This document shows positions 6,910-25,016 of a stretch of DNA of 64,000 nt, piece by piece. The translations under genes were made by a program, and so were the position numbers. The notes under the pieces were generated by a model. The model saw only the letters and a list, made by a program, of their open reading frames with translations, ran no database searches and was not told the DNA's origin. Origin of the DNA: Candidatus Multivorans sp. (GTDB lineage Bacteria > Acidobacteriota > Thermoanaerobaculia > Multivoradales > Multivoraceae); assembly GCA_965224025.1 (NCBI GenBank), contig OZ245033.1, positions 2,688,001 to 2,752,000 of the forward strand, given 5' to 3'. The first letter of the stretch is position 1. Each line of letters begins with the position of its first letter.

Positions 6910-6994
6910 GGATGCACCCGGGTGGGTCGGACGCTGCGGCGGGGCAGCTATGATCACGGTGCGCGAATGAACACGCTGGTTGGAGGGCAGGCAC

Positions 6995-8086: not shown

Positions 8087-8099
8087 TCGGTCCGACCTT

Positions 8100-8275
8100 T
8101 CGTTGAGCTTTCGGCTCCAGGCTCGCGCCAGAGCAGGGCCAACAGTGCCGAGGCATCGAGGAGGGCCCGAGTCACCTCAGTCTCGTGCCGCCTCCCGGCG
8201 TCGCTCGGCGATGAAGGCGTCGACTTCGCTTCCCGATGAACCTGTGCCGTACTTCCGAGCAAGCGCCTGGGCTTG
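8100..8275 (-). pseudogene. Remnant of VapBC toxin-antitoxin pair
   Basis: Antitoxin-like C-terminus (...SEVDAFIAERRREAARD*, stop 8177-8179) followed by GTG at 8175 encoding a truncated PIN N-terminus MTRALLDASALLALLWREPGAE. Confidence 0.65.
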
Positions 8276-8349
8276 TCACGCGGAATGGTATGGCGCCCGG
8301 CTGTACCACGGGAGTGAGAGCAGCTGCCAGTCGCTTGGGCCAGCGGTCA

Positions 8350-8398
8350 GCACGGTGGAGGGACGGACGAGGGTGACCATACCGTCGCTCCACCGTGC
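8350..8398 (-). terminator. Stem-loop downstream of precursor peptide B
   Basis: GCACGGTGGAG...CTCCACCGTGC 11-bp inverted repeat plus inner GACGG/CCGTC pairing. Confidence 0.55.
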
Positions 8399-8430
8399 GT
8401 CGCCCGTTGTCGGCGGGTCGGTCGACCCGG

Positions 8431-8727
8431 CTACATACAGATGGTCATGCTCTGGAAGGTCAGGTACATCCCGATGGCGGTCAAGACGGGGGAGCCGACA
8501 ACCTGGCCAGCGGTAGTAAACACCGCTCCGGCAACCGAGTTGGTCCTGCAACTGTGGCGCCGCGCTCCTCCGACCACGCTCGTCAGGTCGGTGGCCGTGA
8601 AGCGGTCGAGGCCATCGTGGCCGATAGTCGATGGTCCGCCCGCTGTCACGGCGTCAGGCGGTATGGCGAAGGAAGCGCCAACGTTCAACACCAGGGCGAT
8701 CAGTGCAATAGCTGAGAATCTCGTCAT
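8431..8727 (-). CDS. Putative secreted precursor peptide B (Sec signal + GG-type pro-segment + Cys-bracketed core)
   Basis: 21-aa signal ending ASFA; GLDRFTATDLTSVVGG; core ARRHSC...GSP...TICM; RBS GAAAGGAACC shared with the paralog at 9918-10211. Confidence 0.8.
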   Translation of the reverse strand: MTRFSAIALIALVLNVGASFAIPPDAVTAGGPSTIGHDGLDRFTATDLTSVVGGARRHSCRTNSVAGAVFTTAGQVVGSPVLTAIGMYLTFQSMTICM

Positions 8728-8797
8728 GTCCAGGGTTCCTTTCGGTTGTAGAGGATTCGGCAGTCAAGCGGTGGAGGCGGCCGGTAGGCATCTCTCG

Positions 8798-8822
8798 GCC
8801 CACCTATGGACCAAGACGGAAT
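8798..8822 (-). promoter_or_regulatory. Conserved upstream motif of peptide B (candidate promoter)
   Basis: Minus strand ATTCCGTCTTGGTCCATAGGTGGGC, near-identical to 10365-10390. Confidence 0.55.
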
Positions 8823-8899
8823 GGGCGCGGCTGGATTCGTCTCGTGTCCTCGCGTTGCTCAAGGGAAGACGGGCTGCCCGGAAGGAGCGCTATGCATGT

Positions 8900-9592
8900 T
8901 CAGCCGCTGAGCATCTGCTCGCGGCGCTCCGCGCGGGCGAAGGTGAGCGCGATGATGGCGGTAATTATGAGCGCGTAGCCGATGCGGTTCCGGACGGCCA
9001 TCGCGAGCAACTGCTCAGCGTCGGCTCCTTCCACCGTGAGCGGGTTCCAGAACGGCGAAATGCGGAACAGGAACGGGAGTAGGGCAGGCACGCTGACGGC
9101 CAGGCCGAATAGCCCGATGGTTGCCAGGGCGCCGGAAGTCTCGCTGCGGAACAAGGCAGCGAAACCCATGGTCAGTGCCAGACAGAAGACGGCTCCTTGC
9201 GCGGCGCCGTAGAGGGTCTGGAAGACTGGAAAGGCGGTGAAGAATGCGAATGTGAGCACCGCCATCAGGCTCAGGCTGGCAAGCAGGATGAGGCCCGCGG
9301 CGGCGAGCTTCCCAAGCCAGACTCGATGGGCGCCGCCCGGTACGGTGTAGGCGATCTCCAGGGTGTGCTCGTCGAGTTCCCCGGCGATGATCCGGCCGCC
9401 CAGAAACACGGCAAGAGCCGACACCGGCATGCCGATCAGGATGTTCTGGGCTGCGGCGGGTTCAAACCCGGTCTGGCGGGCGGTAACCAGCAAGACCGCC
9501 TGCACGGCAAGCCACGGAAGCGGCAGCAGTGGCAGCAGCCAGTACCGCGGGCCCCCGAGCAGCACGGCGGAGAGACGGATGATGGTGATCAC
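8900..9592 (-). CDS. ABC-2-type small permease, copy B
   Basis: About 6 TM segments; GELDEHTLEIAYTVPGGAHRVWLGK coupling-helix motif; start GTG 9592 by alignment with paralog 10472-11161. Confidence 0.85.
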   Translation of the reverse strand: MITIIRLSAVLLGGPRYWLLPLLPLPWLAVQAVLLVTARQTGFEPAAAQNILIGMPVSALAVFLGGRIIAGELDEHTLEIAYTVPGGAHRVWLGKLAAAGLILLASLSLMAVLTFAFFTAFPVFQTLYGAAQGAVFCLALTMGFAALFRSETSGALATIGLFGLAVSVPALLPFLFRISPFWNPLTVEGADAEQLLAMAVRNRIGYALIITAIIALTFARAERREQMLSG

Positions 9593-9837
9593 GCCAGAGT
9601 TCCGAGGGTCGCCAGACCGGGGCGGACATGTTTGGGTTCGACGCCAAGGAGCGATTGCTGCGAAAGAAGAGTTGGGAGTGACGCGAGGGCGACGAATACC
9701 AGCGGTGTCCACGCGACGCAGCCGACCGCTGATCGGCGCGTCCGCGTCGTCAGAGGCCCGGCGGCCGGTCCGACGTGGCATCCCGGTTGGTTCACTGGAC
9801 GTCGCCCTCGCGCCCACGCGGGAGGAAGGATATTGGC

Positions 9838-9908
9838 CCACCGGCGCTCTCGGAAGAGAGAATCCTCATCAATACGATCGCGTGTAGACTCTCGGGTGGC
9901 GCCGGTGG
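9838..9908 (-). terminator. Stem-loop downstream of precursor peptide A
   Basis: CCACCGGCGC (9838-9847) / GCGCCGGTGG (9899-9908) inverted repeat. Confidence 0.4.
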
Positions 9909-9917
9909 AGAGATTGG

Positions 9918-10211
9918 TTACACGCAGATAGCACCGACAAGGCCGAGGCCGGCACCCTGCCCGATTGGATCCCCTGCGATGGTGGCGGCTACGAAGAGCA
10001 GGTAGCCGAGACCCTTGACGGCCAGAGTGCAAGCTCCCGACCGCCACCCTTCACCGGTCACGGCGACCATGTCGGCATCCGTGAGTTGTTCGAGCCCGGG
10101 ATTGTCCGCGCCCGATGTGTCGCCCGCCACGGCCGTGACAGGGGGTTCTGCGAAGGCGCCGCCGACGCTCAGCACAAGCGCTGCCACTGCGAGAGTTAGA
10201 ACTTTCTTCAT
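9918..10211 (-). CDS. Putative secreted precursor peptide A (Sec signal + GG-type pro-segment + Cys-bracketed core)
   Basis: MKKVLTLAVAALVLSVGGAFA signal; GLEQLTDADMVAVTGE; core GWRSGAC...GDP...AICV; RBS GGAAAGGAACCAGGA. Confidence 0.85.
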   Translation of the reverse strand: MKKVLTLAVAALVLSVGGAFAEPPVTAVAGDTSGADNPGLEQLTDADMVAVTGEGWRSGACTLAVKGLGYLLFVAATIAGDPIGQGAGLGLVGAICV

Positions 10212-10364
10212 GATTCCTGGTTCCTTTCCGTTTCATTGGTTTGTGTTGCCGTCGACCCCGTTCGGAGAGGCCGACGACGCTGGTAGGCGGTGAGGTCCGG
10301 CGGAAGCCGAGAAGGCTTCGCAGGTCCGGCGACCCGCAGCGCCTCGTGGCGCCGCAGGGACTGT

Positions 10365-10390
10365 GCCCGCCTATAGACCTAAGACGGAAT
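10365..10390 (-). promoter_or_regulatory. Conserved upstream motif of peptide A (candidate promoter)
   Basis: Minus strand ATTCCGTCTTAGGTCTATAGGCGGGC, near-identical to 8798-8822. Confidence 0.55.
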
Positions 10391-10471
10391 TCGGAGCGGT
10401 TCTTGTCGCGAGGAACCTGAGAGGGGGGCTGGGTGGCGGTGGATGCGTGTCAGTCGATGGCGGAACCCGGC

Positions 10472-11161
10472 TCAGCCACCGAGCATCTTCTCCCGCCGTT
10501 CCGCTCGGGCGAAGGTAAGTGCCACGATGGCGACGATCGCGAGTGCGATGCCAATACGGTTCTGGACGCTCATGGCGAGCATCCGCGCCGCGTCGGCGTC
10601 CTCGATCGCGAGCGGATTCCATAGCGGCGAAATGCGGAACTGGATAGCGCCGAAGCTGGTGATCAAGCCGTTTAGGCCGAGGAGGCCGATCGTGGCCAGG
10701 GTACCGGCGACCTCGCTGCGGAACAGGGTGGCGAACCCCATCGCGGCAACGAGGTAGAAGACGACTCCCTGGCCCGCGCCGTAGAGGCTCTGGAGGACGG
10801 GGAAAGAGGTGAAGAAGGCGAACGAGACGGCCGCCATGAGAATCATGCTGGAGAGCAGGATCAGGATCGCGGCCGCGAGCTTGCTTAGCCAGACGCGATG
10901 GGCGCCTCCCGGCACGGTGTAGGCAATCTCCAGGCTGTGCTCGTCGAGTTCGCCTGTGATCGTCCGCCCACCCAGGAAGATGGCAAGGACTGCTACCGGC
11001 ACGCCGATCAGGGTGTTCTGGGCCGCCGCGGGCTCGAGCGTGGGCCGTCCCGCAAGCAGTAGCGCTGCCTGGATCGTCAGCCAAACGAGGGGCAGAAAAG
11101 GCAGCAACCAGTAGCGCCGCCCGGCCAGCAGCACCGCGGAGAGACGCAGCACGCCGATCAC
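10472..11161 (-). CDS. ABC-2-type small permease, copy A
   Basis: About 6 TM segments; GELDEHSLEIAYTVPGG; start overlaps the stop of the RND-ABC fusion (GTGA). Confidence 0.88.
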   Translation of the reverse strand: MIGVLRLSAVLLAGRRYWLLPFLPLVWLTIQAALLLAGRPTLEPAAAQNTLIGVPVAVLAIFLGGRTITGELDEHSLEIAYTVPGGAHRVWLSKLAAAILILLSSMILMAAVSFAFFTSFPVLQSLYGAGQGVVFYLVAAMGFATLFRSEVAGTLATIGLLGLNGLITSFGAIQFRISPLWNPLAIEDADAARMLAMSVQNRIGIALAIVAIVALTFARAERREKMLGG

Positions 11162-14100
11162 GCCGGGGTTCCACCGCGCGCCGCCCGCGCCAGCCAGAGG
11201 TAGCCGTCCTCGAGCGTGGGTTCGACCGGTTCGGCGCGTTGATCGGGGCGATCCGCGGCCAGCACGCGCAGGCGGCTGCTGCCGTCGGGCTCGGGTTGGC
11301 GATCAGCGAGCACGGACGTCTGGGGCAGCTCCGGCTCTTCATCTCCGGGCGCCGTCCAGGACCAGACGCGGCCTTCTGCCTCCCGGGACAGCGCCGCCGG
11401 CTCGCCGTCGAACACCATGCGGCCGCCGGTGAGCACCAGCACGCGCTCGCAGGCCACGGCCACGTCCTCGACGACGTGGGTGGAGAAGAGGACGATGCGG
11501 TCCTTGGCCAGGCGCGAGAGCAGGTTGCGGAAGCGGACGCGCTCGCGGGGGTCGAGACCGACGGTCGGCTCGTCGACGACGATGATCGGCGGCAGGCGCA
11601 GCAGCGTGCGGGCCACCGCGACCCGCTGCCGCATGCCGCCGGAGTAGCCACCGATCGGTTCGTCCGCGCGCTCGTCGAGTCCGACCTCGCGCAGCAGGGA
11701 CGCAATGCGCTCGGCTCGCTCCGACGCCTCGATCTGGTAGAGCGCGGCGTAGTACTCGAGGTACTGGCGGGCCGTCAGGCGCGCCGGCAGGCCGGCGTCC
11801 TGCGGCAGGTAGCCGACGTAGCGGGCCAGCCGCTTCCGGACGCTGAGCAGCGGCACGCCGCCCAGCGTGATCCGGCCGCGGGTCGAATCGAGAATGCCGG
11901 TCACCTGGCGGAGCAGGGTCGTCTTGCCGGCACCGTTCGGACCCAGCACGCCGACCATGCCTCGCTCGACTTCGAAGCTCACCGCGGCCAGCGCCTTCAC
12001 CGTGTCGATCGGCAGGTCGAGGCCGAAGATCCGGCTTGCAACCGCGCGCCAGAGGCGGATCAACATGCCGCGCCAGCCCCGTGTGCGCCGCTGGCGCGCC
12101 TCTCGCTGCTCCCGGCGCACCGTCTCGAGGCGCGCCGTGCGACGTCCGAGTTGGATGAAGAGAGTGATGGTGGAGAGGATGGTCACGACGACGAACCCGC
12201 CCACCGCGGGTTCGCTCGCGAGAGCCGGACCGGCGAGGCCCGCGAGAAGCGCCCAGGGCAGCAGGGCGGACAGCACGCCCTCGATGCCGCCCGGCTCGAC
12301 TCGTCCGAGCGCGTCGGCCCGGCCACGGGCACGCCGGACCTCGGTCAGCAACCGGGAAGCGATCAGCAGTGCGGCGATCCAGGCGCCCAGTTGGATCAGG
12401 TCGGCACGAAACCTCAGAGCCATGGCGACCGCGCCGGCGAGCAACAGGAGCAACGGCGGGATGCATTCCCGCGCGTCGGCGGGGTGGAACGCTTCACCGC
12501 CGCGGTCGACCACCTGCCTGGCGAAATCGGTCGACGCCCGCAGCGCCCGGCGCACCGGTCCCGCGAGGCCGTATGTCTTGCGCAGGTGGCGGACCACGAG
12601 GCGGGGCGGTCCGGCGCCGGCCTCCGGCTCCGGCGTCGGCGGCTTCGGCACCAGCCACACGGCGAGCCCGAGCAGCGCGCCGGCGATGAGGACCGTCGTC
12701 GTGATCTGCCAAAGCATGGACTCGATCACGCCGAGCACGAACAACGGGGCGGTGGCCGCGATGACCGCGCCGAGCCAGGTCAGCACCATCCAGGGTCCGA
12801 CGCGGCTGAACAGGTCGTCCAGGCGGCGCAGAAAGACGTAGCCGACCGGGATGACGAGCAGCGTGAGCACGGTCGAGGTCAGAAGACCGCCGATCACGAG
12901 TGTCGCGAAGGGCGGCCAGATCTCGTTCTCGCGTCCGGTGGCGATGGCCAGCGGCGCCAGCGCCGCGATTGTTGTCGCGCTCGTCATCAGCACCGGACGC
13001 GCGCGCTCCCGAACCGCGGCCAGGGCGGCGGCGCCGGCGCTCCAGCCGGCGCCGAGTACACGCTGCTGCATCCGGTCGACGAGCAGGACGGCGGGATTCA
13101 CCGCCAACCCCAGCAGGACGAGCGCCCCGAGCAGCGCCATCGGATCGAGCCCGATGCCTGAGAACATGAGCACCCACAGCGAGCCGAGCAGGGCCAGCGG
13201 CAGGGCCAGCAGGACGAGGATCGGCAGGGTCATCGATTCGAACGCCACCGCCAGAACCAGGAACACGAGCATCACGACCGGGCCGAGGACGCGCCGGAAC
13301 CAGCTCGTGTTCTCGTCCGAGCGGTCGAGCTCGATTGTCGTTCCGGGCGGGCGGTGGACGCTGGCGAGGGCCTCGTCCAGGTTGCGGTCGAACTCCAGCC
13401 GGGCCGCTCCGCTGCTTGGTACGTCGGACGAGACGCTGTAGATGACCTCCCGCTCGCGGCGGCCGTTGTGGTGGGTGATCACCGGGGAAGCCGGCGCGCG
13501 GCGGACCTGCGCCAGCGCCGCCACCGGCAGCACGCCGGCGCCGGTGGAGACGCGCAGCCGGGACAGGCCACTGAGCGACACTTCGCGGTCAGGACTCATC
13601 CCGTCTTCGGGCGTCGCGTCGCTGGGCCGAGCTTCCAGGCGTTGGACGACGATCGGAAGCTCGCGGCCGCTCGGAAGCGGGAAGCCGCTGTTGATGCTCG
13701 TGCCCTCGCGGCCGGCGAGATTCAGCATCGGCAGCACATCGTCGAGCAGCACGCCGAAGGTGTCGAAAGCGCGCCGGTTCGGGCTGACGTGGATCTCCTC
13801 GGGGCCGGGTCGCGAGGAGGGGAAGGCGCCGCTGATCCCCTCGATCTCCTTCAGCCGCTCGGCAACCTCGGCAGCGAGACCGGTCAACTGATCGTTGTCG
13901 TTTCCGGACAGGATGACCTTTTGGGGGCCGCCGCCGAGCAACTCCTGGGCGCCGCCCCCGCCGCCGGGGCCGCCGCCGCGACCGCCCGGGCCTTCGCCTT
14001 CGCCGGGTCGCAGAATCTCGGTGCCGGCGCGCCGGTTCGCGGCCCTGCGTACGAGCTGACGGATTCGCCGCGCGGTCAGTTCCTCGGGACGGTCCTCGAG

Positions 14101-15975
14101 GGGCTCGAGGTGCACCGTCAACGAGCCCCCCTCCTCGCGGATCATGCTTTCGACGCGGTCCACACCGTCGACTTCATGAACCGCTTCCAGGGGCTGAAAG
14201 GCGCGCACCGCGGCATCGAGCGAACTGCGGCTCTCGTCGAGGCGCACCGAGAGCTGGACCTGGTCTGCGATTTCTGCGTCCGGCGACACCGTGTTTCCGA
14301 GCACAAAGGGCAGGGCCACGAGCGCGGTGACGACGACGGCGAGAGCCACCGACGTGACCCAGCTCGCGGGCCGCCTCAATGCCGAGGCGAGAACTCCCGC
14401 GAACAGGATGCGGGTCGGGTCGGGCGGCGCCTGTCCGGCGAAGCGTTCGCGTCGCCGGCGCAGTCGGTCCAGCCGGCGGATTGCCGCGGGCGCGGCCAGA
14501 TGGCGGGCCAGCAGCGGTACGAGACCGATCGCCACCAGCAGGGAACCGAACAGCGGCAGCAGGATCGAGAGGGCGGCGATCGCGATCAGGTTGCGGATGA
14601 ACGACGATCCCAGGTCGACGAGCAACGGCGGCACGAACACGACCGCGGTGGTCACCGACGCGGCGATGATCGCGCGGGCGGTGCGACGAATGCCCCCCGC
14701 CGCGGCGTCGTCGGGACTTCGTCCTCGTTCGAGGCGCCGCTGGACGGACTCGAAGACGACGACGCTGTTGTCGACCAGGAGGCCGACCCCGACCGCCAGG
14801 CCGAAGAGGCTGATCAGGTTCAGCGTCTGGCCCGCCAGATAGAGGAAAGCCAGGGCCGAGGCCAGACTGACCGGCACGGCGATGGCGACAACCGCCACTG
14901 CCCGCCACTGTCGGAGGAAAAGGAACAGGACGGCGAGAGCGATCAGGAAACCGGTCAGACCGAGTTTCTTGAGCCGGTCGATCTGGGTCTCGACGAGCTC
15001 CGCGGCGTCGAAGCTGCTCAGCAGGCGAATGCCCAGCGGCTGGAGATCTTCGTTGATCTCTTCGATTCGGCGGCGGAGGTCGCGGCCGAGGCGAACCAGG
15101 TTCGCACCCTCTTCCTGGAGCACCATGACTCCGACCGAGGGGTCGCCGTTGACCCGGAACAGCGTTTGCCGCCGGCCGGGGCCGACCTCGATTTCGGCGA
15201 CGTGGCGCACCAGGGCCGGCCGGTCCGGCACGATCCGGACTTCGCCCATGGACACCGGCCCGATCGGGCGGCCGTCGAGCATCACCGCCATCCTCCCGGC
15301 CTCGTCCTCCAGGCTGCCGAGGTAGCGCAGGCGGCCGGCCGCGGCGCGCACCGCCGCCGTCACCTGCTCCGTGGTGACGCCGAGCGCGGCACAGCGGTTC
15401 GGGTCGACCCAGACGGTCAACTGGCGCGCCGCGCCGCCGCCGACCATCGCCTGGCTGACGCCCGAAACCGCGGCCAGCCGCGGAGTGACGAGTTCGTCGA
15501 CCAAACCGCGCAGGGCGTTCTGATCGGCCGCGCCGGTGACCTGCAGAACCATGGCGAAACTGGAAAGAAAGCCGGTGTCCTGGGACTGGACATCGAGGAA
15601 GGCATTCCGCGGCTGGGTGCGGGCCAGGTCCGCGGCGATCCGGCGCACCTCCAGCTCGCGCACCTTCAGGTCGACGCCACGCTCGAAGAGGATCGTGAAG
15701 CTGCCGCCGGAGCCGATGACCTCGCCCCAGGTTTCGGCGACCCGCGGCAGGGTCCGTACCCGGGCCTCCAGAGGCATCAGGATCTCCCGCTCGATGGTCT
15801 CCGGTTCGCTGCCCGGGCGGAAGAAGTTGACGTAGAGCTGGTCGCCGGTCAGGGCGGGGAAGAGTTCCACCGGCAACCTTTGCCATGCGAACAGCCCCAT
15901 GATCACCAGCCCCAGGAAGAACATCGCCACGGCGACGGGGCGGCGAATGGCGAGGGTGTCGAGACCGGCTCTCAC
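11158..15975 (-). CDS. RND efflux permease fused to a C-terminal ABC ATPase domain
   Basis: AcrB-like RRPVAVAM, LPVELFP, GLLVDNSVVV, RARPVLMTS; C-terminal GPNGAGKTT, GYLPQD, YSGGMRQR, IIVVDEPT, STH; single 1605-aa ORF. Confidence 0.9.
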   Translation of the reverse strand: MRAGLDTLAIRRPVAVAMFFLGLVIMGLFAWQRLPVELFPALTGDQLYVNFFRPGSEPETIEREILMPLEARVRTLPRVAETWGEVIGSGGSFTILFERGVDLKVRELEVRRIAADLARTQPRNAFLDVQSQDTGFLSSFAMVLQVTGAADQNALRGLVDELVTPRLAAVSGVSQAMVGGGAARQLTVWVDPNRCAALGVTTEQVTAAVRAAAGRLRYLGSLEDEAGRMAVMLDGRPIGPVSMGEVRIVPDRPALVRHVAEIEVGPGRRQTLFRVNGDPSVGVMVLQEEGANLVRLGRDLRRRIEEINEDLQPLGIRLLSSFDAAELVETQIDRLKKLGLTGFLIALAVLFLFLRQWRAVAVVAIAVPVSLASALAFLYLAGQTLNLISLFGLAVGVGLLVDNSVVVFESVQRRLERGRSPDDAAAGGIRRTARAIIAASVTTAVVFVPPLLVDLGSSFIRNLIAIAALSILLPLFGSLLVAIGLVPLLARHLAAPAAIRRLDRLRRRRERFAGQAPPDPTRILFAGVLASALRRPASWVTSVALAVVVTALVALPFVLGNTVSPDAEIADQVQLSVRLDESRSSLDAAVRAFQPLEAVHEVDGVDRVESMIREEGGSLTVHLEPLEDRPEELTARRIRQLVRRAANRRAGTEILRPGEGEGPGGRGGGPGGGGGAQELLGGGPQKVILSGNDNDQLTGLAAEVAERLKEIEGISGAFPSSRPGPEEIHVSPNRRAFDTFGVLLDDVLPMLNLAGREGTSINSGFPLPSGRELPIVVQRLEARPSDATPEDGMSPDREVSLSGLSRLRVSTGAGVLPVAALAQVRRAPASPVITHHNGRREREVIYSVSSDVPSSGAARLEFDRNLDEALASVHRPPGTTIELDRSDENTSWFRRVLGPVVMLVFLVLAVAFESMTLPILVLLALPLALLGSLWVLMFSGIGLDPMALLGALVLLGLAVNPAVLLVDRMQQRVLGAGWSAGAAALAAVRERARPVLMTSATTIAALAPLAIATGRENEIWPPFATLVIGGLLTSTVLTLLVIPVGYVFLRRLDDLFSRVGPWMVLTWLGAVIAATAPLFVLGVIESMLWQITTTVLIAGALLGLAVWLVPKPPTPEPEAGAGPPRLVVRHLRKTYGLAGPVRRALRASTDFARQVVDRGGEAFHPADARECIPPLLLLLAGAVAMALRFRADLIQLGAWIAALLIASRLLTEVRRARGRADALGRVEPGGIEGVLSALLPWALLAGLAGPALASEPAVGGFVVVTILSTITLFIQLGRRTARLETVRREQREARQRRTRGWRGMLIRLWRAVASRIFGLDLPIDTVKALAAVSFEVERGMVGVLGPNGAGKTTLLRQVTGILDSTRGRITLGGVPLLSVRKRLARYVGYLPQDAGLPARLTARQYLEYYAALYQIEASERAERIASLLREVGLDERADEPIGGYSGGMRQRVAVARTLLRLPPIIVVDEPTVGLDPRERVRFRNLLSRLAKDRIVLFSTHVVEDVAVACERVLVLTGGRMVFDGEPAALSREAEGRVWSWTAPGDEEPELPQTSVLADRQPEPDGSSRLRVLAADRPDQRAEPVEPTLEDGYLWLARAARGGTPA

Positions 15976-15988
15976 GTCGCCTTCCGGT

Positions 15989-18900: not shown

Positions 18901-19183
18901 CGGTGCGGGCCACCTGGTGAACCTCGCGGAGGCCGCGCACCGTGAACAGGCGCTGCTCGACCTGCTCGCCGTAGAGCCGCTCCATCTCGGTCGGCGGCCG
19001 GTCGCCGGAACGCACGGCGACGACGATGGTCGGCGAACGCAGGTCGGGCAGGAGGTCGATCGGCAGTTCGCGCCACGACATCCAGCCCACCAGGGCGAAG
19101 GCCAGGGCGGTGACGGTGACCGCTACGGGCCGGCGCGCAGCCAGGCGGGCGGGACCGAAGGTCTCACCGGATGTTCGAGTCAT
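15989..19183 (-). CDS. RND (AcrB/AcrD/AcrF family) efflux permease
   Basis: LPIDLLP, GMLVDNAIVVVE, GVAVNDAVLL, RLRPILMTTLTT; 1064 aa. Confidence 0.93.
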   Translation of the reverse strand: MTRTSGETFGPARLAARRPVAVTVTALAFALVGWMSWRELPIDLLPDLRSPTIVVAVRSGDRPPTEMERLYGEQVEQRLFTVRGLREVHQVARTGRLIATVRFDWDADMDLALIEVQKAVNPVAADPEVDEVLVRQLDPRQSPVITLGLAAEPEGPDLAELRRLARRQVAPAMEQLADVAEVRVLGGRDLEVRVRVDRYRLQAFGVTLNQLEQRLVAENVDIDAGTLEDGGQVYLVRGISRFRNSRDVERVVVRYRTQQVGGGQQVRQPIRVSDVAEVELAHAEIDHLVRVNGREGVGLQVFKEAGANTVEVSRTVRAALDDLERDLPRVSVSMVNDDAALVEDAMDDLLNAALIGIALAVVVLALFLRSLGPTVVVASAVPVSLFVALFAMRLWEHSLNIITLAGLALGAGMLVDNAIVVVESIHRRHRPGASAADTAARGTGEVAGAIAASTLTTCVVFLPVLFVQGLAARLIEGIAFTVTASLGASLAVAIMLIPALSRWLLPRAKPETAAPEATEEASEAATTGTTADPDEDEARPLGWAFGAVERLVLSLLRLRWLVVATAVLAAAGGVHVLLGLGSELLPPADPRQFSVRMVGPPGQRVEATAGAVATLEEAVRQAAGEHLEAIQAEVGRLPEDDRLVTTELTEENTARLLVRMSAEGPTGGQIVAALQPNFEDLPGTEIEWEVGASALSRALGSAGPPIVVEIAGQSLPDLRLAATRLRDALAAQSELWNVRSSFEGGPPELRIELDRAMADGLGVGLETIARVLQSALDGRRVTLLSTGDEERHVVLSLPQPRPEELAELRFTSNAGADLALGQVARFVPAEGAREVFRRDQRRVAQVTARVAEDSDYPRAVAAAGEAIAATDLPSGLGVRLAGEEEERERAVGELRWAGLLALVLVLMVLAGTFESLLQPLTVLFSIPLALVGVACTLGFLGRPVGVMALLGLIVLAGVAVNDAVLLIATARRLLAAGMERHAALARAAAIRLRPILMTTLTTVLVLAPLALGAGEAAELRSPMAYTIIGGILTSTVGSLLVLPCLYLILDSMRLTRRRRAPAGA

Positions 19184-19222
19184 CGTGCCGGGCTCCGGTG
19201 GTCAGAGCTGCCGAATCGGCTC

Positions 19223-20329
19223 CTATTGGGAGACCCGGACGCGTGTACCGTCGGTCAGGGTCTCGAGACCGCGTACGACGACCCGCTCGCCGAGCTCGAG
19301 CCCCTGGCGAATCTCGGTGATCTCGTCGTCGCCGAGGCCGAGAACGACTTCGCGCCGCACCGCGCGCTGGCCGTCGAGGACGAAGACGACGCGCCGGCCG
19401 CCGCGCTCGGTAACCGCCTCGCGCGGAATGACGGGGACGTCGTTTCGCTGCTCGACGACCAGGGTCACTTCGACGAACATGCCCGGCCGCAGCAGGCCGC
19501 CGGGATTGCGCACGGCGACCTCGGCGCGGAAGGTGTGGGCGACCGGGTCGACCTCGGGGGACAGGCGAACGACCGCGCCTGCGAACGTCTGGCCCTCCCA
19601 GGCGAAGTGCCTGAGCCGGCCCTGCTGCCTGGGGTGGACCCGCGCCAGTTCGGGGCCCACGAGGTCGATGTCGGCGACCAGGGAGTCGACCGGAGCGATC
19701 CGGGCCACCTGGAAGCCCTGGGAGACGAGCTGGCCGTCGGCGATCGGCATGCCGTTCGGGTCGCGCGCGAGTTCCATCAGCACACCGCCGATCGGAGTCA
19801 GCATCTTCGCGCGGTCCTCGGTCAGGAGGCTCTGCTCCCAGGTCGCCTTCGCGTCCTCGAGCGCGATCTCGGCGCGGCGCAGTTCCTCGGCACTGATCAG
19901 TTCCTGCTCGAACAGCTTGGCGCGGGCGTCTCGTTCGGCCTCGGCGCCCAGGTAGGCCTGGTGGGTTGCTTCGACCCGGGCCGCAAGGCGTGCGTCCTCG
20001 CCGGTGACCTCCGCGATCATCTGGTCGGGGACGACGCGGTCGCCCTCGGCCAGCCGGTCGCCGGAACCGTTGCGGCCGATCAGCAGTCTCCCGGGCGTTT
20101 CGACCTGCAGGACGATGCTCTCGGCCGCTCGCAGAGTGCCGGTGGCGACGATCAGATCCTCGACGCTGCCGGTTTCGACCTCGGCCGCGGTGACCGGCAC
20201 CAGGAAGTCGACGGGGTCCGTGCTGCCGCCGCCTTCGCAGGCGACGATCGCGGCGCAGGCCGCAATCGCAATTGCGAGGCCCGCGCGCCGGAAGTTGGCG
20301 GTCGGGCGGGATGGCTGCCGCGCGCTCAT
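19223..20329 (-). CDS. RND periplasmic adaptor (MFP), probable lipoprotein
   Basis: Start MSARQP (ATGA overlap with upstream gene); lipobox IVAC; LLRPGMFVEV, IPREAV, GLELGERVVVRG. Confidence 0.9.
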   Translation of the reverse strand: MSARQPSRPTANFRRAGLAIAIAACAAIVACEGGGSTDPVDFLVPVTAAEVETGSVEDLIVATGTLRAAESIVLQVETPGRLLIGRNGSGDRLAEGDRVVPDQMIAEVTGEDARLAARVEATHQAYLGAEAERDARAKLFEQELISAEELRRAEIALEDAKATWEQSLLTEDRAKMLTPIGGVLMELARDPNGMPIADGQLVSQGFQVARIAPVDSLVADIDLVGPELARVHPRQQGRLRHFAWEGQTFAGAVVRLSPEVDPVAHTFRAEVAVRNPGGLLRPGMFVEVTLVVEQRNDVPVIPREAVTERGGRRVVFVLDGQRAVRREVVLGLGDDEITEIRQGLELGERVVVRGLETLTDGTRVRVSQ

Positions 20330-23300
20330 GGCCCCGCGCCCCCGGTCTCGGCACGGCCGGCGGCGGCGCCGTTGTCGAGCCGCACGAAGCGCACGGCGTC
20401 CGCGGCGACCGCTCTGCCGGAGGTCTCGTCGCTCAGGACCAGTTCGGTCGGGCCGCCGGCCAGATCGAAGTCTCCGAGCACCGCCCATCCGGTTCCCGCG
20501 GCCGCGGCGTCGAAGTCGATCGGCCGGGAGACGCCGCCGTTCTGCAGTTCGAGGTCGTAGGTACCGAGATTCAGGCCCAGGTTCACCGAGATCCGCACGC
20601 CGTCGCCGTCGTTCCCTCTTCGCTGAGCGTTTCCTCCATCGTTGCCGACCCGCACTTCCCGACGCACGCCCGCGGCGCCGGCTGGCAGCGGCGAGAGCGA
20701 CGGTACGTGCAGTTCGACTCGCCAGCGGCCGTCTGCCGGCAACTCCGTCCGGTAGATCGCGCGGCTGGTCCCTTCGCCCGCTGGCGCCAGGGCGGTCGTG
20801 CGGCGGTAGCGCCCCCAACTCGTGGGCTGTTCGTAGCGCGACCATTCTGTCGGCGTTCCGCCGAAGCTCTGGTAAACGAGCAGGCCCTGATCCGTCTGGT
20901 TCGACGGTGCGAAGAAGCCGGCGAGACCGCCCTGCAGCCGGAAGCCGCCGGTATCCGCTTCATCCGTCTCGATCGAGAAGCCGGGGTCCAGGTCGTCGAC
21001 GACGACCATGTCGGTCGCTGATCGCAGGAAGGCGGGCAGCCAGTCGGCCGGTCGCGTGCCGCGTAGCGGTTCGGCCTCGACGATCGATTCGTCGTCGACA
21101 TCAGGCAGATCGATCGGGAACTCCCGGCGGTTCAGCGACAGATACGGGGAAGCGAGCATCCTGCCCGGCGCCCTGGACGTGACCAGGCCGAATTCGACGG
21201 AGGTGTTTCCCGGGATCAGAGTTGGCTCGCTGGTCTCCCAGCGCACCCCGCTCGGTGCGCGAACGGCGTAGCGGAGCCGGAAGAGGCCGGGCGCTTTCTC
21301 GCCGTTGTGGACGAAGAGACGGGTCTGGTACTGCGGCAGGCCCTGGTCGTCGTCCGCCAGCCGCACGAGTTCGGCTGCGGAGACGACGAAGCCGGGCAGG
21401 TCGGTCTGGTGGAGGAAGTCGCCGACCAGGCCGGCGAGGTCCACGCCGGCTTCCTGAGCGGCCCGTTCGAGGTCGGCGGCGGTGAAGGTCGAGCCCCGGT
21501 GGTCGCGCATGAGGTTGGCGATCATCGCGGCGGTCCGTTCCCGGCCGGCGCCGTCCAGGATTGCGGTGGCCAGGGCCGAGGTCTTCAGGTAGAGCGCGTT
21601 GAGCGCCTTCTTCGGCTCCTCTTCGACCTCCATTTTCGTCAGCGAGGCGCCGAGCACGGCGTCCCAGACTTCGGGGCGGTCCGTGAGGCTCCTCACGATC
21701 GAACTGGAGATGGGTGCGCCGCCTCCGCCGAGCTGGCCCAACACGGCGCCCTGTACCACGCTGCCGATCGTCCAGCCGAACTCGCGGTCGAACAGGTGGG
21801 CCGAGAAGTACGATTCGCCGCCGCTCACCAGCCGGTTCACCAGGTTGTTGCACAGTTCGTCGAGCGCCAGCGCCTCCGGACCGCGGGCGGCGGTCTGATA
21901 CAGGAACAGGTTGCGGATGCCGCCCACCTCCACGTTGCCGCCCGAGAAGTCGTTGCGGAAGAACTGCTGCAGTCTGAAGGCCTTTGCCCGCGCCAGACCG
22001 CCCTCCTGCTCCTCGAACTGCTCAGGGTTGCGGAACGGGAACTCGAAGCGAGCGGTCGGCAGGCTGCTCTCGCTGATCAGCACCATGCCCGGCGGTGCGC
22101 GCTCGGTGTCCATGCGCCAACCGCCGCCGTAGGAACGCAGCGTCCAGGGCACTTCGACCAGGGTGAGTTGGCGGTAGGGGTAGGGCAGACCGAGCTCGCG
22201 GGCAGTGGCGAAGCGCTCGGCGGCGACCGCTTCGATCTCTTCCCTGGCATCGGCGAAGAACTCCACGTTTCTGAGATGGCGGGGGTGGACGAGCAGTTCG
22301 ATCTCGACGCCCTCGATCTCCGTCGTCCGGCGATCGAACCGTCCGGCGATCAGGGCCGCTTCAGGCACGACCCCCACCGGTGCGAACCGTTGCCGGTCGC
22401 CTGCCGCCTCGCCTCTGCCTGGCCCGGCGACCGTCCAGCCCGAGGGGGCGCCGACCTCCAGGTCGAGTTCGAAGAAGTCTCTGGGACGCCTTCGCGGATC
22501 GGCGAGGCCAACTGAAGCGCCGGGGCGTGGCAGCCAGGCCAGCGCGGCGGGCAGCGCGACGTAGCGACGCTCCGCAAAGCCGTTCAGGGCGCCGAGAATG
22601 ATGATCTGCGCGTCCTGGAACTTGATCCGGTTGAAATCGATCGCGGAATCCAGGTGGGCGAAGCGAAGGTCAGGCCGTCCGTGGGCGCGCAGGCGAAGGT
22701 CGACGGCTTGGCCCGCGGCCTGCGAGCGCCCGAGGTCGACTTCGAGCAGGCCGGCGCCGTGGTTGAAGGCGAGCGGCGCGCCGGCAGAGTCCTCGACGGC
22801 ATCGACGTCAAGGCCGGGGTTCAGGCTGAAGAGGGCCCGCGAACCTCCGGCGGCGAGGAACCGGACGTTGACGTCGAGGGTCAGACGACCCCGCGGTTCG
22901 ATGTCGACGGAGCCGTGGATCCGCTCCAGGTCAAGGACCGGTTCCTCCTGACGTTCCGCGTGGGCGATCCGCCAGTCGTCGATCTCGTCGACCTGGTTGG
23001 TGGCGGTCACCGCGGCGGCCGCGATCGTGCCGATGGCCGCGACCAGAAGGCCGGCGCCGGCGGTGGCCCACAGGCGTCGCCGGGCGTCGTCGAGCCGGGG
23101 ATGGACGGCGACGGCGACCGCAAGCAGACCAACGGCCAGCGCCGCGACCGTGGCCCGGTTCATCAGGTTCAGGGCGGTCCATATCTGGGGCGCGACTTCG
23201 GACGGATTGCTGCCGAAGCCGCCCTGGAGCGACAGGATGGGCAGGATGTAGGTCGGTACGCGGAAGGAGAGAATCCATGGACCGATGGCCAGCCCGAGGC

Positions 23301-23874
23301 CAAGAAGCGCGGCCACCAGGCGGTTGCGGCTCAGGAGCGACGCCACCTGGACGAAGGCGATGGTCATGGCCAGCGCCGGCAGCGCCTCGGTCAGCAGGTA
23401 GGCCCAGACGGAACTCCAGATCGCCGGTTCGCCCACGTACCAACCGAGCGCCACTCCGAGATGGCCGAAGCCCTGGATGAGCATCATGCCGATGAAGGCG
23501 ACGCCCCAGATCAGGATCAGGGCGCCCAGGAACCTGCCCAGGACGAGTTCCGCGTTCGAATAGGGCCGGCTGTCCAGGACCTCGATCACGCGGTCGCGCC
23601 GGTCCCGTGCGCGCACGTCGAAGGCCAGAAAGACGACGCCGATCGCCAGGACCATCGTCTGGATCGAACCCATCTGGGCGAGCAGGAACTTCGGGCTGAA
23701 CGAGCCGACCGTCGCCGACCAGGACGAGAAGAGGCCGTGGATAGCCCAGTAGTAGCCGTACGACAGCAGGCCGATGAGGATTGCAAGGCCCGAGAACAAC
23801 CAGAAGCGGAACAGCCGGCGGATGGTGCGCATCTCGGCGCGGGCCAGGGACCAGACGGCGGCGAGTGAGATCAC
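20326..23874 (-). CDS. ABC-2 permease fused to an M1-aminopeptidase-like domain lacking HEXXH and a C-terminal golvesin-like beta-sandwich
   Basis: N-terminal TMs with RDRRDRVIEVLDSRPYSNAELVLGR; LPYPYRQLTLVEVP; YLKTSAL...DFLHQTDLP; tail GWAVLGDFDL...AADAVRFVR; start GTG 23874 after AGGAGG. Confidence 0.8.
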   Translation of the reverse strand: MISLAAVWSLARAEMRTIRRLFRFWLFSGLAILIGLLSYGYYWAIHGLFSSWSATVGSFSPKFLLAQMGSIQTMVLAIGVVFLAFDVRARDRRDRVIEVLDSRPYSNAELVLGRFLGALILIWGVAFIGMMLIQGFGHLGVALGWYVGEPAIWSSVWAYLLTEALPALAMTIAFVQVASLLSRNRLVAALLGLGLAIGPWILSFRVPTYILPILSLQGGFGSNPSEVAPQIWTALNLMNRATVAALAVGLLAVAVAVHPRLDDARRRLWATAGAGLLVAAIGTIAAAAVTATNQVDEIDDWRIAHAERQEEPVLDLERIHGSVDIEPRGRLTLDVNVRFLAAGGSRALFSLNPGLDVDAVEDSAGAPLAFNHGAGLLEVDLGRSQAAGQAVDLRLRAHGRPDLRFAHLDSAIDFNRIKFQDAQIIILGALNGFAERRYVALPAALAWLPRPGASVGLADPRRRPRDFFELDLEVGAPSGWTVAGPGRGEAAGDRQRFAPVGVVPEAALIAGRFDRRTTEIEGVEIELLVHPRHLRNVEFFADAREEIEAVAAERFATARELGLPYPYRQLTLVEVPWTLRSYGGGWRMDTERAPPGMVLISESSLPTARFEFPFRNPEQFEEQEGGLARAKAFRLQQFFRNDFSGGNVEVGGIRNLFLYQTAARGPEALALDELCNNLVNRLVSGGESYFSAHLFDREFGWTIGSVVQGAVLGQLGGGGAPISSSIVRSLTDRPEVWDAVLGASLTKMEVEEEPKKALNALYLKTSALATAILDGAGRERTAAMIANLMRDHRGSTFTAADLERAAQEAGVDLAGLVGDFLHQTDLPGFVVSAAELVRLADDDQGLPQYQTRLFVHNGEKAPGLFRLRYAVRAPSGVRWETSEPTLIPGNTSVEFGLVTSRAPGRMLASPYLSLNRREFPIDLPDVDDESIVEAEPLRGTRPADWLPAFLRSATDMVVVDDLDPGFSIETDEADTGGFRLQGGLAGFFAPSNQTDQGLLVYQSFGGTPTEWSRYEQPTSWGRYRRTTALAPAGEGTSRAIYRTELPADGRWRVELHVPSLSPLPAGAAGVRREVRVGNDGGNAQRRGNDGDGVRISVNLGLNLGTYDLELQNGGVSRPIDFDAAAAGTGWAVLGDFDLAGGPTELVLSDETSGRAVAADAVRFVRLDNGAAAGRAETGGAGP

Positions 23875-23888
23875 TGTCGGGCCCTCCT

Positions 23889-23917
23889 GGGAACGCGGGC
23901 GTCTCGCCCGCATCCGG
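23889..23917 (+). repeat. REP-like palindrome inside the transporter operon
   Basis: GGGAACGCGGGCGTCTCGCCCGCATCCGG. Confidence 0.8.
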
Positions 23918-23944
23918 CTCGGGGCCAGACCACGGCGAGCGGCA

Positions 23945-24964
23945 TCACGGTTGAGCCTCCTTGCCGGACACGCCTCCGTCGGGTGGCGCTGTTGCGCCGG
24001 GAGACCCTGGGCCCTCCAAGTCTTCGGCAAGTCCGGCGCCTTCGCTCTCGCCGAAGTGCTTCTCGGTCACGATGGCCTCGGCGCGGCCGCGCGCGACCAT
24101 GAAGGCGAGGTATCCCTCCTCGAGGGTCGGCGACGAGGCGATCCGGGCGTCCGCCGGCACGCCGCCGGGCGCCGCGACGCCGCGGTAGGTCGTTTCGTTC
24201 ATGCTGGCGGTGCGCGAGACGATCTCGAAGCCGCCCTCGGGTTGCGGCGCGGATGTCGGCAGGGTCAGCTCGAAGACTTGGCCCTGGGCGCGCTCGAGCA
24301 GGCCTGACGGAGAGCCGCGAAAGACGATCTTGCCCGCGTCGAGCAGGGCGAGGTCGCTGCAGCCGGTACCCAGGTCGGCGACGATGTGGGTAGAGAGGAT
24401 GATCGTCCGTTCGCGGCCGAGGTTCGCCATCAGTTGGCGGAAGCGCAGGCGCTCCTCGGGATCCAGGCCGACCGTGGGTTCGTCGACCACCAGCAGGCGG
24501 GGTTGGTGGATCAGCGCCTGGGCGATGCCGAGGCGGCGGGTCATGCCGCCGGACAGCTTCTTCACCTTGCGGTGGGCGACCTCGCCGAGGCCGACGCTGT
24601 CGAGGACGGAGTCGACCCGGGCCCGGCGGGCGCCGCGGCCGTCCAGGCCCGAGAGCTCGGCCAGGGTGTCGAGGACTTCCTCCACGCGGTGCAGGCGCCA
24701 GGCGCCGAACTCCTGCGGAAGGTAGCCCAGGTGTGCGCGGACGCCGCGTCGCTGAGAGACCACGTCGTGGCCGAAGACCGTTGCCGCCCCGCCGCTGGGC
24801 TTGAGCAGCGTGCAGACGATCCGCATCAGGGTGCTCTTGCCGGCGCCGTTGGGGCCCAGCAGACCGAAAAGGCCGGCGCCGATCTCCAGATCGACGCCGT
24901 TGAGGGCTACTGTGCCGCCGCGATAGACGTGGCGGAGGCCGCGGGCGGCCACTGTCGTCGTCAG
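23945..24964 (-). CDS. ABC transporter ATP-binding protein
   Basis: GPNGAGKS, GYLPQE, LSGGMTRR, LLVVDEPT, STH; start may be CTG 24964 (6 nt after GGAGGAG) or GTG 24952. Confidence 0.93.
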   Translation of the reverse strand: MTTTVAARGLRHVYRGGTVALNGVDLEIGAGLFGLLGPNGAGKSTLMRIVCTLLKPSGGAATVFGHDVVSQRRGVRAHLGYLPQEFGAWRLHRVEEVLDTLAELSGLDGRGARRARVDSVLDSVGLGEVAHRKVKKLSGGMTRRLGIAQALIHQPRLLVVDEPTVGLDPEERLRFRQLMANLGRERTIILSTHIVADLGTGCSDLALLDAGKIVFRGSPSGLLERAQGQVFELTLPTSAPQPEGGFEIVSRTASMNETTYRGVAAPGGVPADARIASSPTLEEGYLAFMVARGRAEAIVTEKHFGESEGAGLAEDLEGPGSPGATAPPDGGVSGKEAQP

Positions 24965-24988
24965 AGTTGTCTCCTCCCGAAAGGTCTA

Positions 24989-25016
24989 TACGGATGACAG
25001 CGGTGCATGGTTTACA
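24989..25016 (-). promoter_or_regulatory. Candidate ECF-sigma promoter of the transporter operon
   Basis: Minus strand TGTAAAC-N17-CGTA just upstream of the RBS; resembles the AAC/CGT ECF consensus. Confidence 0.5.

Follow-up and report, generated by a model that had tools for sequence, protein, structure and literature searches.

The stretch of DNA analysed here (the window) comprises 64,000 nucleotides (nt) of Candidatus Multivorans sp., a member of the Acidobacteriota (contig OZ245033.1 of assembly GCA_965224025.1, positions 2,688,001 to 2,752,000 of the forward strand). It contains a single minus-strand string of long open reading frames (ORFs), from 24952 down to 8431, in which nine co-oriented genes bring together parts of a resistance-nodulation-division (RND) pump, parts of ATP-binding cassette (ABC) transporters and two small secreted peptides. 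An earlier reading of the same DNA, referred to below as the original prediction, had described such a run, and all nine genes were found on the minus strand in the order and places that it gave. The G+C content of the window is ~69%, on account of which raw ORF lists are noisy, and the domains of the window genes were assigned by Pfam and NCBIfam profile scans. Read in the direction of transcription, the run encodes an ABC ATPase, a large ABC-2-type permease with an ectodomain, a periplasmic adaptor, a first RND permease (RND1), a second RND permease fused to an ABC ATPase (the fusion), a small ABC-2-type permease (permease A), a peptide precursor (peptide A), a second small permease (permease B) and a second peptide precursor (peptide B). 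The six core genes, up to and including permease A, overlap or lie <45 nt from their neighbours, and the GTG start codon of permease A overlaps the TGA stop codon of the fusion, while spacers of 172-328 nt precede the peptide genes.

The central element of the run is the fusion, one uninterrupted frame of 1605 amino acids (aa) at 11158-15975. Its RND part (residues 1-1050, 12826-15975) is matched by the ACR_tran profile at residues 8-1049 (E 1.2e-141), and its C-terminal part (residues 1321-1605, 11158-12015) consists of an ABC ATPase domain, or nucleotide-binding domain (NBD; ABC_tran at residues 1331-1471, E 6.7e-27), and a C-terminal regulatory-type domain. The two parts are joined by a linker (residues 1051-1320, 12016-12825) that was delineated by hydropathy, AlphaFold2 (AF2) secondary structure and residues conserved in 55 homologues. 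According to hydropathy and the AF2 model based on these homologues (predicted local distance difference test, pLDDT, 84.8; predicted template modelling score, pTM, 0.73), two transmembrane helices (TMs) follow TM12 of the RND part, then a cytoplasmic β-strand, one helix and four more TMs, after which the chain enters the remaining ATPase domain. The strand resembles the first strand of an ABC ATPase domain, as found at the N-terminus of the separate ATPase of the operon, and the insert between this first NBD strand and the rest of the domain amounts to ~190 residues, with one helix and four TMs.

A search with residues 1040-1605 of the fusion, in which 8000 candidates were scored, returned 1341 proteins at E ≤0.001, and the best 120 of them all combine ACR_tran with ABC_tran, mostly over 1570-1640 aa. 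Among contigs taken from one genome per species, a relative of the fusion is encoded in at least 564 of 592 candidate stretches; 80 homologous loci (given L-numbers) were kept of the at least 564, and the fused architecture is present in all 80 that were fetched. These loci span the Acidobacteriota, Gammaproteobacteria and Desulfobacterota, their records being from Candidatus Multivorans, Thermoanaerobaculia, Vicinamibacterales, Gammaproteobacteria/Pseudomonadales, Desulfatiglans-type Deltaproteobacteria and others, including an isolate record named Acidobacteria bacterium Mor1. An assembly or frameshift artefact was ruled out by the recurrence of the fusion in the 120 best proteins and in at least 564 stretches. 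The fusion is a real, conserved protein family. No published description of a covalent RND-ABC architecture with an embedded TM insert was found in the literature library that was searched, nor any paper on Candidatus Multivorans. Three homologues of 1840-1876 aa (P0063, P0068 and P0070) also contain sigma-70 region 4 domains (PF04545, PF08281), representing either a further fusion or a merged gene call with an adjacent gene for an extracytoplasmic function (ECF)-type sigma factor.

The surroundings of the fusion are conserved as well. The four upstream genes occur in the same order and on the same strand in 49 of the 60 loci that have at least 9 kb of upstream flank (phmmer tabulation), and in 69 of the 75 loci with at least 800 nt downstream the start of a small permease is found no more than 600 nt from the NBD. 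In L065 the fusion and the permease form a two-gene unit amid unrelated genes, which makes these two the minimal conserved pair. A TolC-like gene lies 7-121 nt past the permease in L035, L041 and L052, which fits a pump that spans the outer membrane; in the window's own genome (G000), several OEP genes are present, all of them outside the window. The parts list of the original prediction, in which an ABC module is tethered to the RND, therefore holds for the core, given the conservation of the fusion and of the small permease behind it.

RND1 (1064 aa, HAE-1-like, 15989-19183; ACR_tran E 3.5e-198) and the RND part of the fusion share 32% identity (E 9e-53), and on this comparison the two are old paralogues. 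Both are full-length RND domains, of the kind with 12 TMs and two large periplasmic loops, since the ACR_tran profile was covered from position 3 to 1020 of 1021 in RND1 and from 4 to 1020 of 1021 in the fusion, and the RND part of the fusion matches pumps of the AdeB/AcrB/MexB/MdtB type among sequences in the PDB (E 1e-57 to 1e-69). In the canonical RND proton relay, protons are handled by an Asp-Asp pair in TM4, a Lys in TM10 and an Arg in TM11 (AcrB numbering). A TM4 motif V-D-N was found in 60 RND1 ORFs (67 loci searched) and in 68 fusion ORFs (80 loci), and is present in both RND proteins of the window. In TM10, RND1 carries V-N-D (66 matches), whereas the fusion carries V/I-N-P (72 of 80 loci), the window proteins having V-N-D and V-N-P, respectively; these TM4 and TM10 motifs may correspond to the AcrB relay positions (Lys940 in TM10). 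The fusion also retains an R-x-R-x-R-P-x-x-M-T motif (66 ORFs). The TM10 difference suggests divided labour within an RND heteromer. The split between the two paralogues at TM10 is also seen across phyla.

In the NBD of the fusion, Walker A, the Q-loop, the signature, Walker B with its Glu and the H-loop are invariant in 55 of 55 sequences; the same motifs can be read in both ATPases of the window, for which ABC_tran scored above the cut-off. Foldseek relates the fused NBD to ATPases of the ABC-2 type, namely TM_1403 (4yer_A, E 8.7e-20) and NosF (7osf_B, E 1.5e-16). Its closest paralogue in the genome is the separate ATPase of the operon (335 aa, 23945-24952; DrrA/GldA-like, ABC_tran E 3e-29), which scores 228.8 bits against the profile of the fusion's C-terminal part, compared with ≤162.7 for all others; the best NCBIfam matches of that protein, TIGR01188 and TIGR03522, are both below cut-off. 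Directly behind the NBD lies permease A (229 aa, 10472-11161) with six predicted TMs, which matches ABC2_membrane_2 below cut-off (18.9 bits) and whose look-alikes in the protein atlas are clusters of ABC-2 permeases (score 0.98). Co-folding had been proposed as a further check, and the C-terminus of the fusion folded with permease A scored 0.57 (runs 0.54, 0.57 and 0.57; ≥93% of contacts shared, partner pLDDT ≥71), compared with 0.00 for the best of three controls. At the mark applied, 58 of 80 solved complexes and 2 of 110 mismatched pairs pass, and scores of 0.60 or less belonged to 7 of the 80 solved complexes and to both mismatches that passed. Furthermore, a pair of NBD and permease may pass through mere likeness to solved ABC transporters.

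Upstream of RND1 are the adaptor and the large permease. The adaptor (19223-20347) is a periplasmic membrane fusion protein with matches to HlyD_D23 and TIGR01730 (E 1e-45; 156.2 bits over a curated cut-off of 94.9), and a lipobox-like I-V-A-C at the N-terminus of its translation makes it a probable lipoprotein. The large permease (1192 aa, 20326-23904), the start codon of which is uncertain as the frame is open up to 24030, is of the NosY type (ABC2_membrane_2, E 2.3e-7) and has ~7 predicted TMs and an extracytoplasmic part of ~890 aa that ends in a Golvesin_C β-domain (E 6.8e-9). The AF2 model of this ectodomain (pLDDT 82.6, pTM 0.81) is most similar in Foldseek to IRAP, ERAP1, EryP and PepN (E 1e-17 to 1e-14), at ~10% identity over ~640 columns and with TM-scores of 0.36-0.48 normalised by target. 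The "M1-like" label of the original prediction thus stands at the level of the fold and fails at that of catalysis: no string resembling HExxH or GxMEN occurs in the 1192 aa, neither Pfam (Peptidase_M1) nor NCBIfam reports an M1 match, and the three His residues that are invariant in 25 homologues all lie outside zinc or exopeptidase motifs. A sequence-profile search of the PDB returned the M1 peptidase 6iff only, at E 0.11. The ectodomain is probably an M1-fold pseudo-peptidase that serves as a binding module, the lack of both motifs being read as non-catalytic, and an active M1 enzyme as the leader peptidase of the peptides was dropped on the same grounds. Database relatives of the large permease have generic names only. 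The gene is single-copy in the window's own genome, and five gammaproteobacterial genomes in which fusion and permease stand alone contain 7 to 37 large-permease matches each. Three genomes of 2.6-3.7 Mb (G001, G002 and G005, those of L065, L069 and L088) have 27-37 matches each, of which many are full-length frames, and one contig carries tandem copies (G005:C15:30365-63349) at intervals too small for ATPase genes.

The two peptides belong to one family. Peptide A (97 aa, core type T2, 9918-10211), which is matched by the hidden Markov model (HMM) of the family and by no other, is 33% identical to peptide B (98 aa, core type T4, 8431-8727; E 4e-12). Members begin as Sec-type signals do, with positive charge at the N-terminus, then a hydrophobic stretch and a site resembling A-x-A, followed by a leader of ~30 residues that ends in L-(S/T)-(D/E)-x-(D/E)-(L/M)-x-x-(V/I)-x-G and a hydrophobic, Gly-rich core of 42-48 residues (~44 aa in peptide A, with one predicted TM-length segment). 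In 35 aligned peptides the sole invariant residues are the Gly at the end of the leader and two Cys close to the two ends of the core (G53, C61 and C96 in peptide A). The leader is of the double-glycine type, with the Gly at position -2 kept in 35 of 35, and the leader part of the profile also matches repeat proteins with canonical double-glycine leaders (P0150, P0154). The signal and leader are conserved, while the cores, of at least five divergent types, are shuffled from one close relative to another. Spurious ORFs were ruled out by these invariant residues and by the presence of the family in 35 of 41 other genomes of the genus. C-terminal sorting tags were likewise ruled out, as neither peptide matched an NCBIfam sorting-signal family, GlyGly-CTERM and PEP-CTERM-like signals included, at E ≤0.1. 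Pfam, NCBIfam and the protein atlas gave no toxin family for the peptides, and the best atlas look-alikes of peptide A are unnamed clusters (score 0.86), which serve as a lead only.

The family is narrowly distributed. The HMM, built from the first matches, finds members only in the close clade in which the fusion is ≥70% identical, with zero matches outside it; a genome-wide search across the taxonomic family finds none in 15 genomes of 12 sister genera, and a 35-sequence profile run against 1.84 billion representative proteins gave 35 matches at E ≤0.001, nearly all of ~100 aa. In distant loci, nothing recurrent was seen among small ORFs with signal-peptide-like N-termini up to 2.5 kb past the permease. 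Judged by this distribution, the peptide modules are a single-genus add-on and not part of the conserved machine, so that the core cannot be read as a dedicated peptide system, as originally proposed: homologous operons lack such ORFs in all 15 sister-genus genomes and show none comparable in distant loci.

Within the genus, peptides and extra permeases go together. Of the 80 loci, 18 carry at least two full-length permeases, in every case with peptides; another 58 show neither, in four a peptide occurs with no extra permease, and the reverse, an extra full-length permease where there is no peptide, is not seen at all. The original prediction is supported in that the peptides exist and have a Sec-type signal, and these counts tie them to the pump. 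In the window, permease B (230 aa, 8900-9592) is 69% identical to permease A (E 1e-91), and the permease-peptide duplication takes the form of direct repeats, 1569-1572 nt apart and 71-78% identical. In a maximum-likelihood tree of 44 permeases, those that directly follow the NBD form a tight clade of near-identical sequences whatever peptide comes next, and two identical core permeases precede different peptide types, while the accessory permeases form a second clade with longer branches. When peptide types are mapped on the tree of accessory permeases, that of the upstream peptide changes 5 times compared with 10.1 in shuffled data (1 of 2000 shuffles was as low), whereas the type of the downstream peptide changes 10 times compared with 9.8. 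These counts use 19 upstream and 20 downstream rows out of 24, neighbours that were unclassified peptides or permeases having been left out; rows at the end of a string, where no peptide follows, are in the downstream count of 20 and out of a separate count of 14 rows. Since the accessory permease tracks the type of the peptide upstream of it, the cassette unit is, on the evidence of the tree, a peptide and the permease that follows, in the classic order of bacteriocin and immunity gene, and not permease A with peptide A, which was the order first suggested. For the window we propose a pairing of peptide A with permease B. The 15 invariant residues of the core family are retained without exception in 20 of 24 accessory permeases, and permease B has 15 of 15.

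The cassettes also share an upstream element. A box of ~24 nt, found in 19 of 19 aligned regions upstream of peptide genes with 11 invariant columns, is an imperfect inverted repeat with C-G-T-C and A-T-A-G, and may be a promoter or operator; its copies in the window lie at 10366-10390, upstream of peptide A, and 8799-8822, upstream of peptide B. An Rfam scan of 8000-11200 on both strands gave no match at E ≤1, a sigma-70 promoter scan of 8000-11300 gave 0 sites, and the two terminator-like sites in the latter interval (1.3 expected) are both within permease genes. A consensus fold of 14 type-1 upstream regions has three hairpins with a covariation term of +0.62, which leaves a structured RNA unsupported. 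The run is flanked by a divergent gene (25157-26641, plus strand) and a convergent gene (6980-8086, plus strand). The latter encodes a 368-aa protein with a signal peptide, and the same gene follows the cassette region in L013, L021, L030, L050, L054 and L073, indicating a fixed operon end where cassettes come and go. In L030 the fusion gene is separated from the first permease by a remnant of an integrase core (rve_3; L030:15518-16159), next to which stands a peptide gene in inverted orientation, as evidence of rearrangement in the cassette region.

The original prediction had noted the absence of a C39 peptidase, TolC and a modifying enzyme. None of the three was found at the locus, so that this holds locally; for the genome as a whole it does not, because, besides the OEP genes, two standalone C39 genes (214 and 200 aa) lie outside the window and adjoin peptides of the family. 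The 214-aa protein was found through a weak self-match of peptide A that led to a third family member; at this locus (L007:1387-2415 = G000:C1:~3369475-3370503) a C39 protein with a lipobox-like N-terminus is followed by a 100-aa member of the peptide family, beside ORFs that we take to be transposase-like. At the second locus (L089:6061-10144 = G000:C1:1803061-1807144) a TlpA-like redoxin (CxxC) precedes the 200-aa C39 (PF03412, E 2.4e-31), after which come three small ORFs with signal peptides and a protein of 540 aa with multiple TMs, for which Pfam gave no match; two of the small ORFs have a double-glycine-type leader and a Cys pair, and the third is rich in Cys and Pro. An ABC ATPase match lies ~1.7 kb beyond this locus. 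Both C39 proteins have a basic stretch and a hydrophobic helix at the N-terminus and keep the regions of the catalytic Cys and His, and we infer that both face the periplasm. Each of 41 genomes of the genus has an orthologue of this C39, whereas sister genera have only weak C39 matches, within long frames resembling peptidase-containing ABC transporters (PCATs). The C39 gene also turns up beside the fusion itself: in L030 it lies between the accessory permease and the peptide, downstream of the fusion, and in L019 (L019:3760-15519) and L018 a paralogue of the fusion (78% identity), which has none of the four upstream genes, is directly followed by C39 and peptide. The neighbours of this paralogue include genes for IS21 IstB, AbiU2 (HEPN) and an ApeA-like protein, resembling a mobile or defence-island setting. 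Taken together, the exported standalone C39 proteins are likely the leader peptidases of the peptides.

Gene content, the fusion, its conservation, the features of the peptides, their linkage to C39 and the co-variation with permeases are read directly from the data. The explanation that we favour, with a probability of about 0.5, is a tripartite RND/ABC hybrid exporter, grafted onto which are microcin-like peptides with their cognate, exchangeable permeases; drawn from uncultured genomes throughout, this reading as a whole is a hypothesis, in which we infer a physical complex, energy coupling, processing, antimicrobial activity and immunity. The conduit would consist of the lipoprotein adaptor, the two paralogous RND proteins, probably as an MdtBC-type heterotrimer, and an unlinked TolC-like channel. 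The fused ATPase domain most likely drives the adjacent small ABC-2 permease, and the separate ATPase would form a second ABC-2 module with the permease that bears the M1-fold pseudo-peptidase. Both modules would capture or extract substrate at the periplasmic face of the inner membrane and pass it to the conduit of RND, adaptor and channel. The peptides would be exported by Sec, cut by C39 after the invariant Gly and closed by one disulfide in the core. An accessory permease would then replace the core permease at the fused ATPase and expel its cognate peptide from the membrane or periplasm of the producer, so that self-immunity and secretion would be achieved through one act. A more far-reaching version, which we consider less likely than not, is a previously unrecognised class of machine energised by both ATP and the proton-motive force, in which the RND is hard-wired to an ABC motor and exchangeable ABC-2 "cartridges" set which substrate is drawn from the inner membrane or periplasm into the conduit of RND, adaptor and TolC. 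In this genus the cartridges would co-evolve with peptides delivered by Sec and matured by periplasmic C39, a maturation route distinct from type I secretion, and in some Gammaproteobacteria the large M1-fold cartridges would have multiplied to dozens of matches per genome.

Several observations weigh against the favoured explanation. The co-fold of the fusion C-terminus with permease A lends it weak support. The co-variation is suggestive, coming from one genus in which related genomes share labels. Type-T4 peptides, peptide B among them, are always terminal in relatives and have no following permease, and in L018 and L019, where C39 and peptide are present, a permease is lacking up to 600 nt from the NBD. 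The invariant Gly is followed by G, A, E, K or R, a looser choice than the canonical GG, GA or GS, which makes the point of cleavage uncertain. The 6 genomes of the genus that gave no peptide match have the C39 orthologue too, so that the enzyme has other substrates. Finally, since the peptide cassettes have their own box and long spacers, their transcription may be independent of the pump.

The alternative that survives best, although we consider it unlikely, assigns to the system export only: the accessory permeases would be peptide-specific loading adaptors, immunity, if needed, would be provided elsewhere, and the peptides could be toxins, signals or surface factors. The linkage of permeases and peptides fits this equally well, as do the TolC-like gene in the operon of three relatives, the fusion paralogue of L018 and L019 that is joined just to C39 and a peptide, and the precedent of MacAB-TolC, which secretes STII from the periplasm (PMC8277102). 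However, the order of one peptide and one permease, combined with the fast evolution of the permeases, is the classic pattern of immunity, and T4 peptides have no permease of their own. Moreover, export and immunity would here be mechanistically one act, and are hard to tell apart by sequence.

It is quite improbable that the cassettes are mere hitch-hikers, that is, that the core is an ordinary efflux or envelope-lipid pump at the 3′ end of which cassettes have landed that use their own promoters and another ATPase. Their absence from all distant homologues, the conserved box and long spacers before each peptide, the loci of the genus that have no cassettes (L012, L015 and L026) and the mobile-element traces, as remnants of insertion sequences or integrases in the cassette region of L030 and as IS21 neighbours in L019, all speak for it. 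Yet, as paralogues of the permease of the pump itself, the accessory permeases have kept its 15 invariant residues, no cassette encodes an ATPase, the cassettes of the window's own genome are, C39 clusters aside, confined to this operon, and in L030 and L019 C39 and peptide again lie beside the fusion gene. Least probable of all is that the peptides have no antimicrobial role and are disulfide-stapled regulatory or structural subunits of the pump, in the manner of AcrZ, or pheromone precursors sensed by the permeases, because, despite their hydrophobic Gly-rich cores, the TM-length segment of peptide A, the lack of a toxin family match and the fact that double-glycine leaders occur on pheromones too, the shuffling of at least five divergent cores behind a constant signal and leader, the variation of copy number and of presence or absence within the genus and the fast-evolving partner are typical of conflict genes and not of a stoichiometric subunit.

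RND pumps have been taken as proton-driven and ABC pumps as ATP-driven, the two being separate machines. A covalent RND-ABC fusion in hundreds of species and at least three phyla would be a new architecture for efflux biology, and poses the question of whether ATP hydrolysis gates, loads or drives the RND protomer. If the favoured explanation is true, the peptides follow a microcin-like route in which Sec and an exported standalone C39 take the place of a PCAT, and immunity or secretion is specified by swapping a transporter subunit. The peptides would also supply candidate substrates for periplasmic C39 peptidases, a group that includes FapD, an active periplasmic C39 peptidase of unknown substrate (PMC5557850).

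Compared with known systems, the core is closest in layout to pumps of the MdtABC-TolC type, for which MdtBC provides the precedent of a heterotrimeric RND (PMC8277102): in both, an adaptor is followed by two paralogous HAE-1-like RND genes, and a TolC-like gene is present in three relatives of the window operon. It differs in the six extra TMs and the ABC ATPase on one of the paralogues, and in the two ABC-2 permeases and the second ATPase of the conserved operon. With NosFY, DrrAB and GldAF, ABC-2 (type V) transporters, it shares ATPases that resemble DrrA, GldA and NosF and permeases in or near ABC2_membrane_2, but here one ATPase is placed behind an RND, with the first strand of the NBD apparently split off, and one permease carries an M1-fold ectodomain. 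That ectodomain has the multi-domain fold of M1 aminopeptidases (IRAP, ERAP1 and PepN, as well as EryP, a lanthipeptide leader peptidase), and differs from them in its ~10% identity, the absence of HExxH and GxMEN and its attachment to an ABC-2 membrane domain. In function, the peptide route proposed here comes nearest to the export by MacAB-TolC of the Sec-delivered, disulfide-bonded enterotoxin STII from the periplasm, which likewise combines Sec, a disulfide and a tripartite pump with an ABC component (PMC8277102). MacB, however, is of type VII and has no RND partner and no cognate permease paralogues, and a double-glycine leader is not involved.

Class II microcins act from the periplasm and have adjacent immunity genes for small inner-membrane proteins (PMC12219008). 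In these and other double-glycine bacteriocins the leader is placed at the extreme N-terminus, and a PCAT with a membrane fusion protein carries out processing and export from the cytoplasm. With them the peptides share a leader that ends in Gly, an unmodified core of ~45 aa, one Cys pair and an adjacent gene for an inner-membrane protein. They differ in that a Sec-type signal stands ahead of the leader, the C39 is standalone and exported with no PCAT, the neighbouring gene encodes a six-TM ABC-2 permease paralogous to a pump subunit, and position -1 is less constrained. Like the peptidases found here, FapD, from the Fap amyloid system of Pseudomonas, is a standalone C39 with an export signal (PMC5557850); it has no known link to leader peptides, whereas here candidate substrates of the double-glycine type adjoin the peptidase. 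Every part of the system comes from a known superfamily; the covalent RND-ABC architecture is without a description in the literature searched, and the proposed peptide route differs from the PCAT-based secretion of class II microcins.

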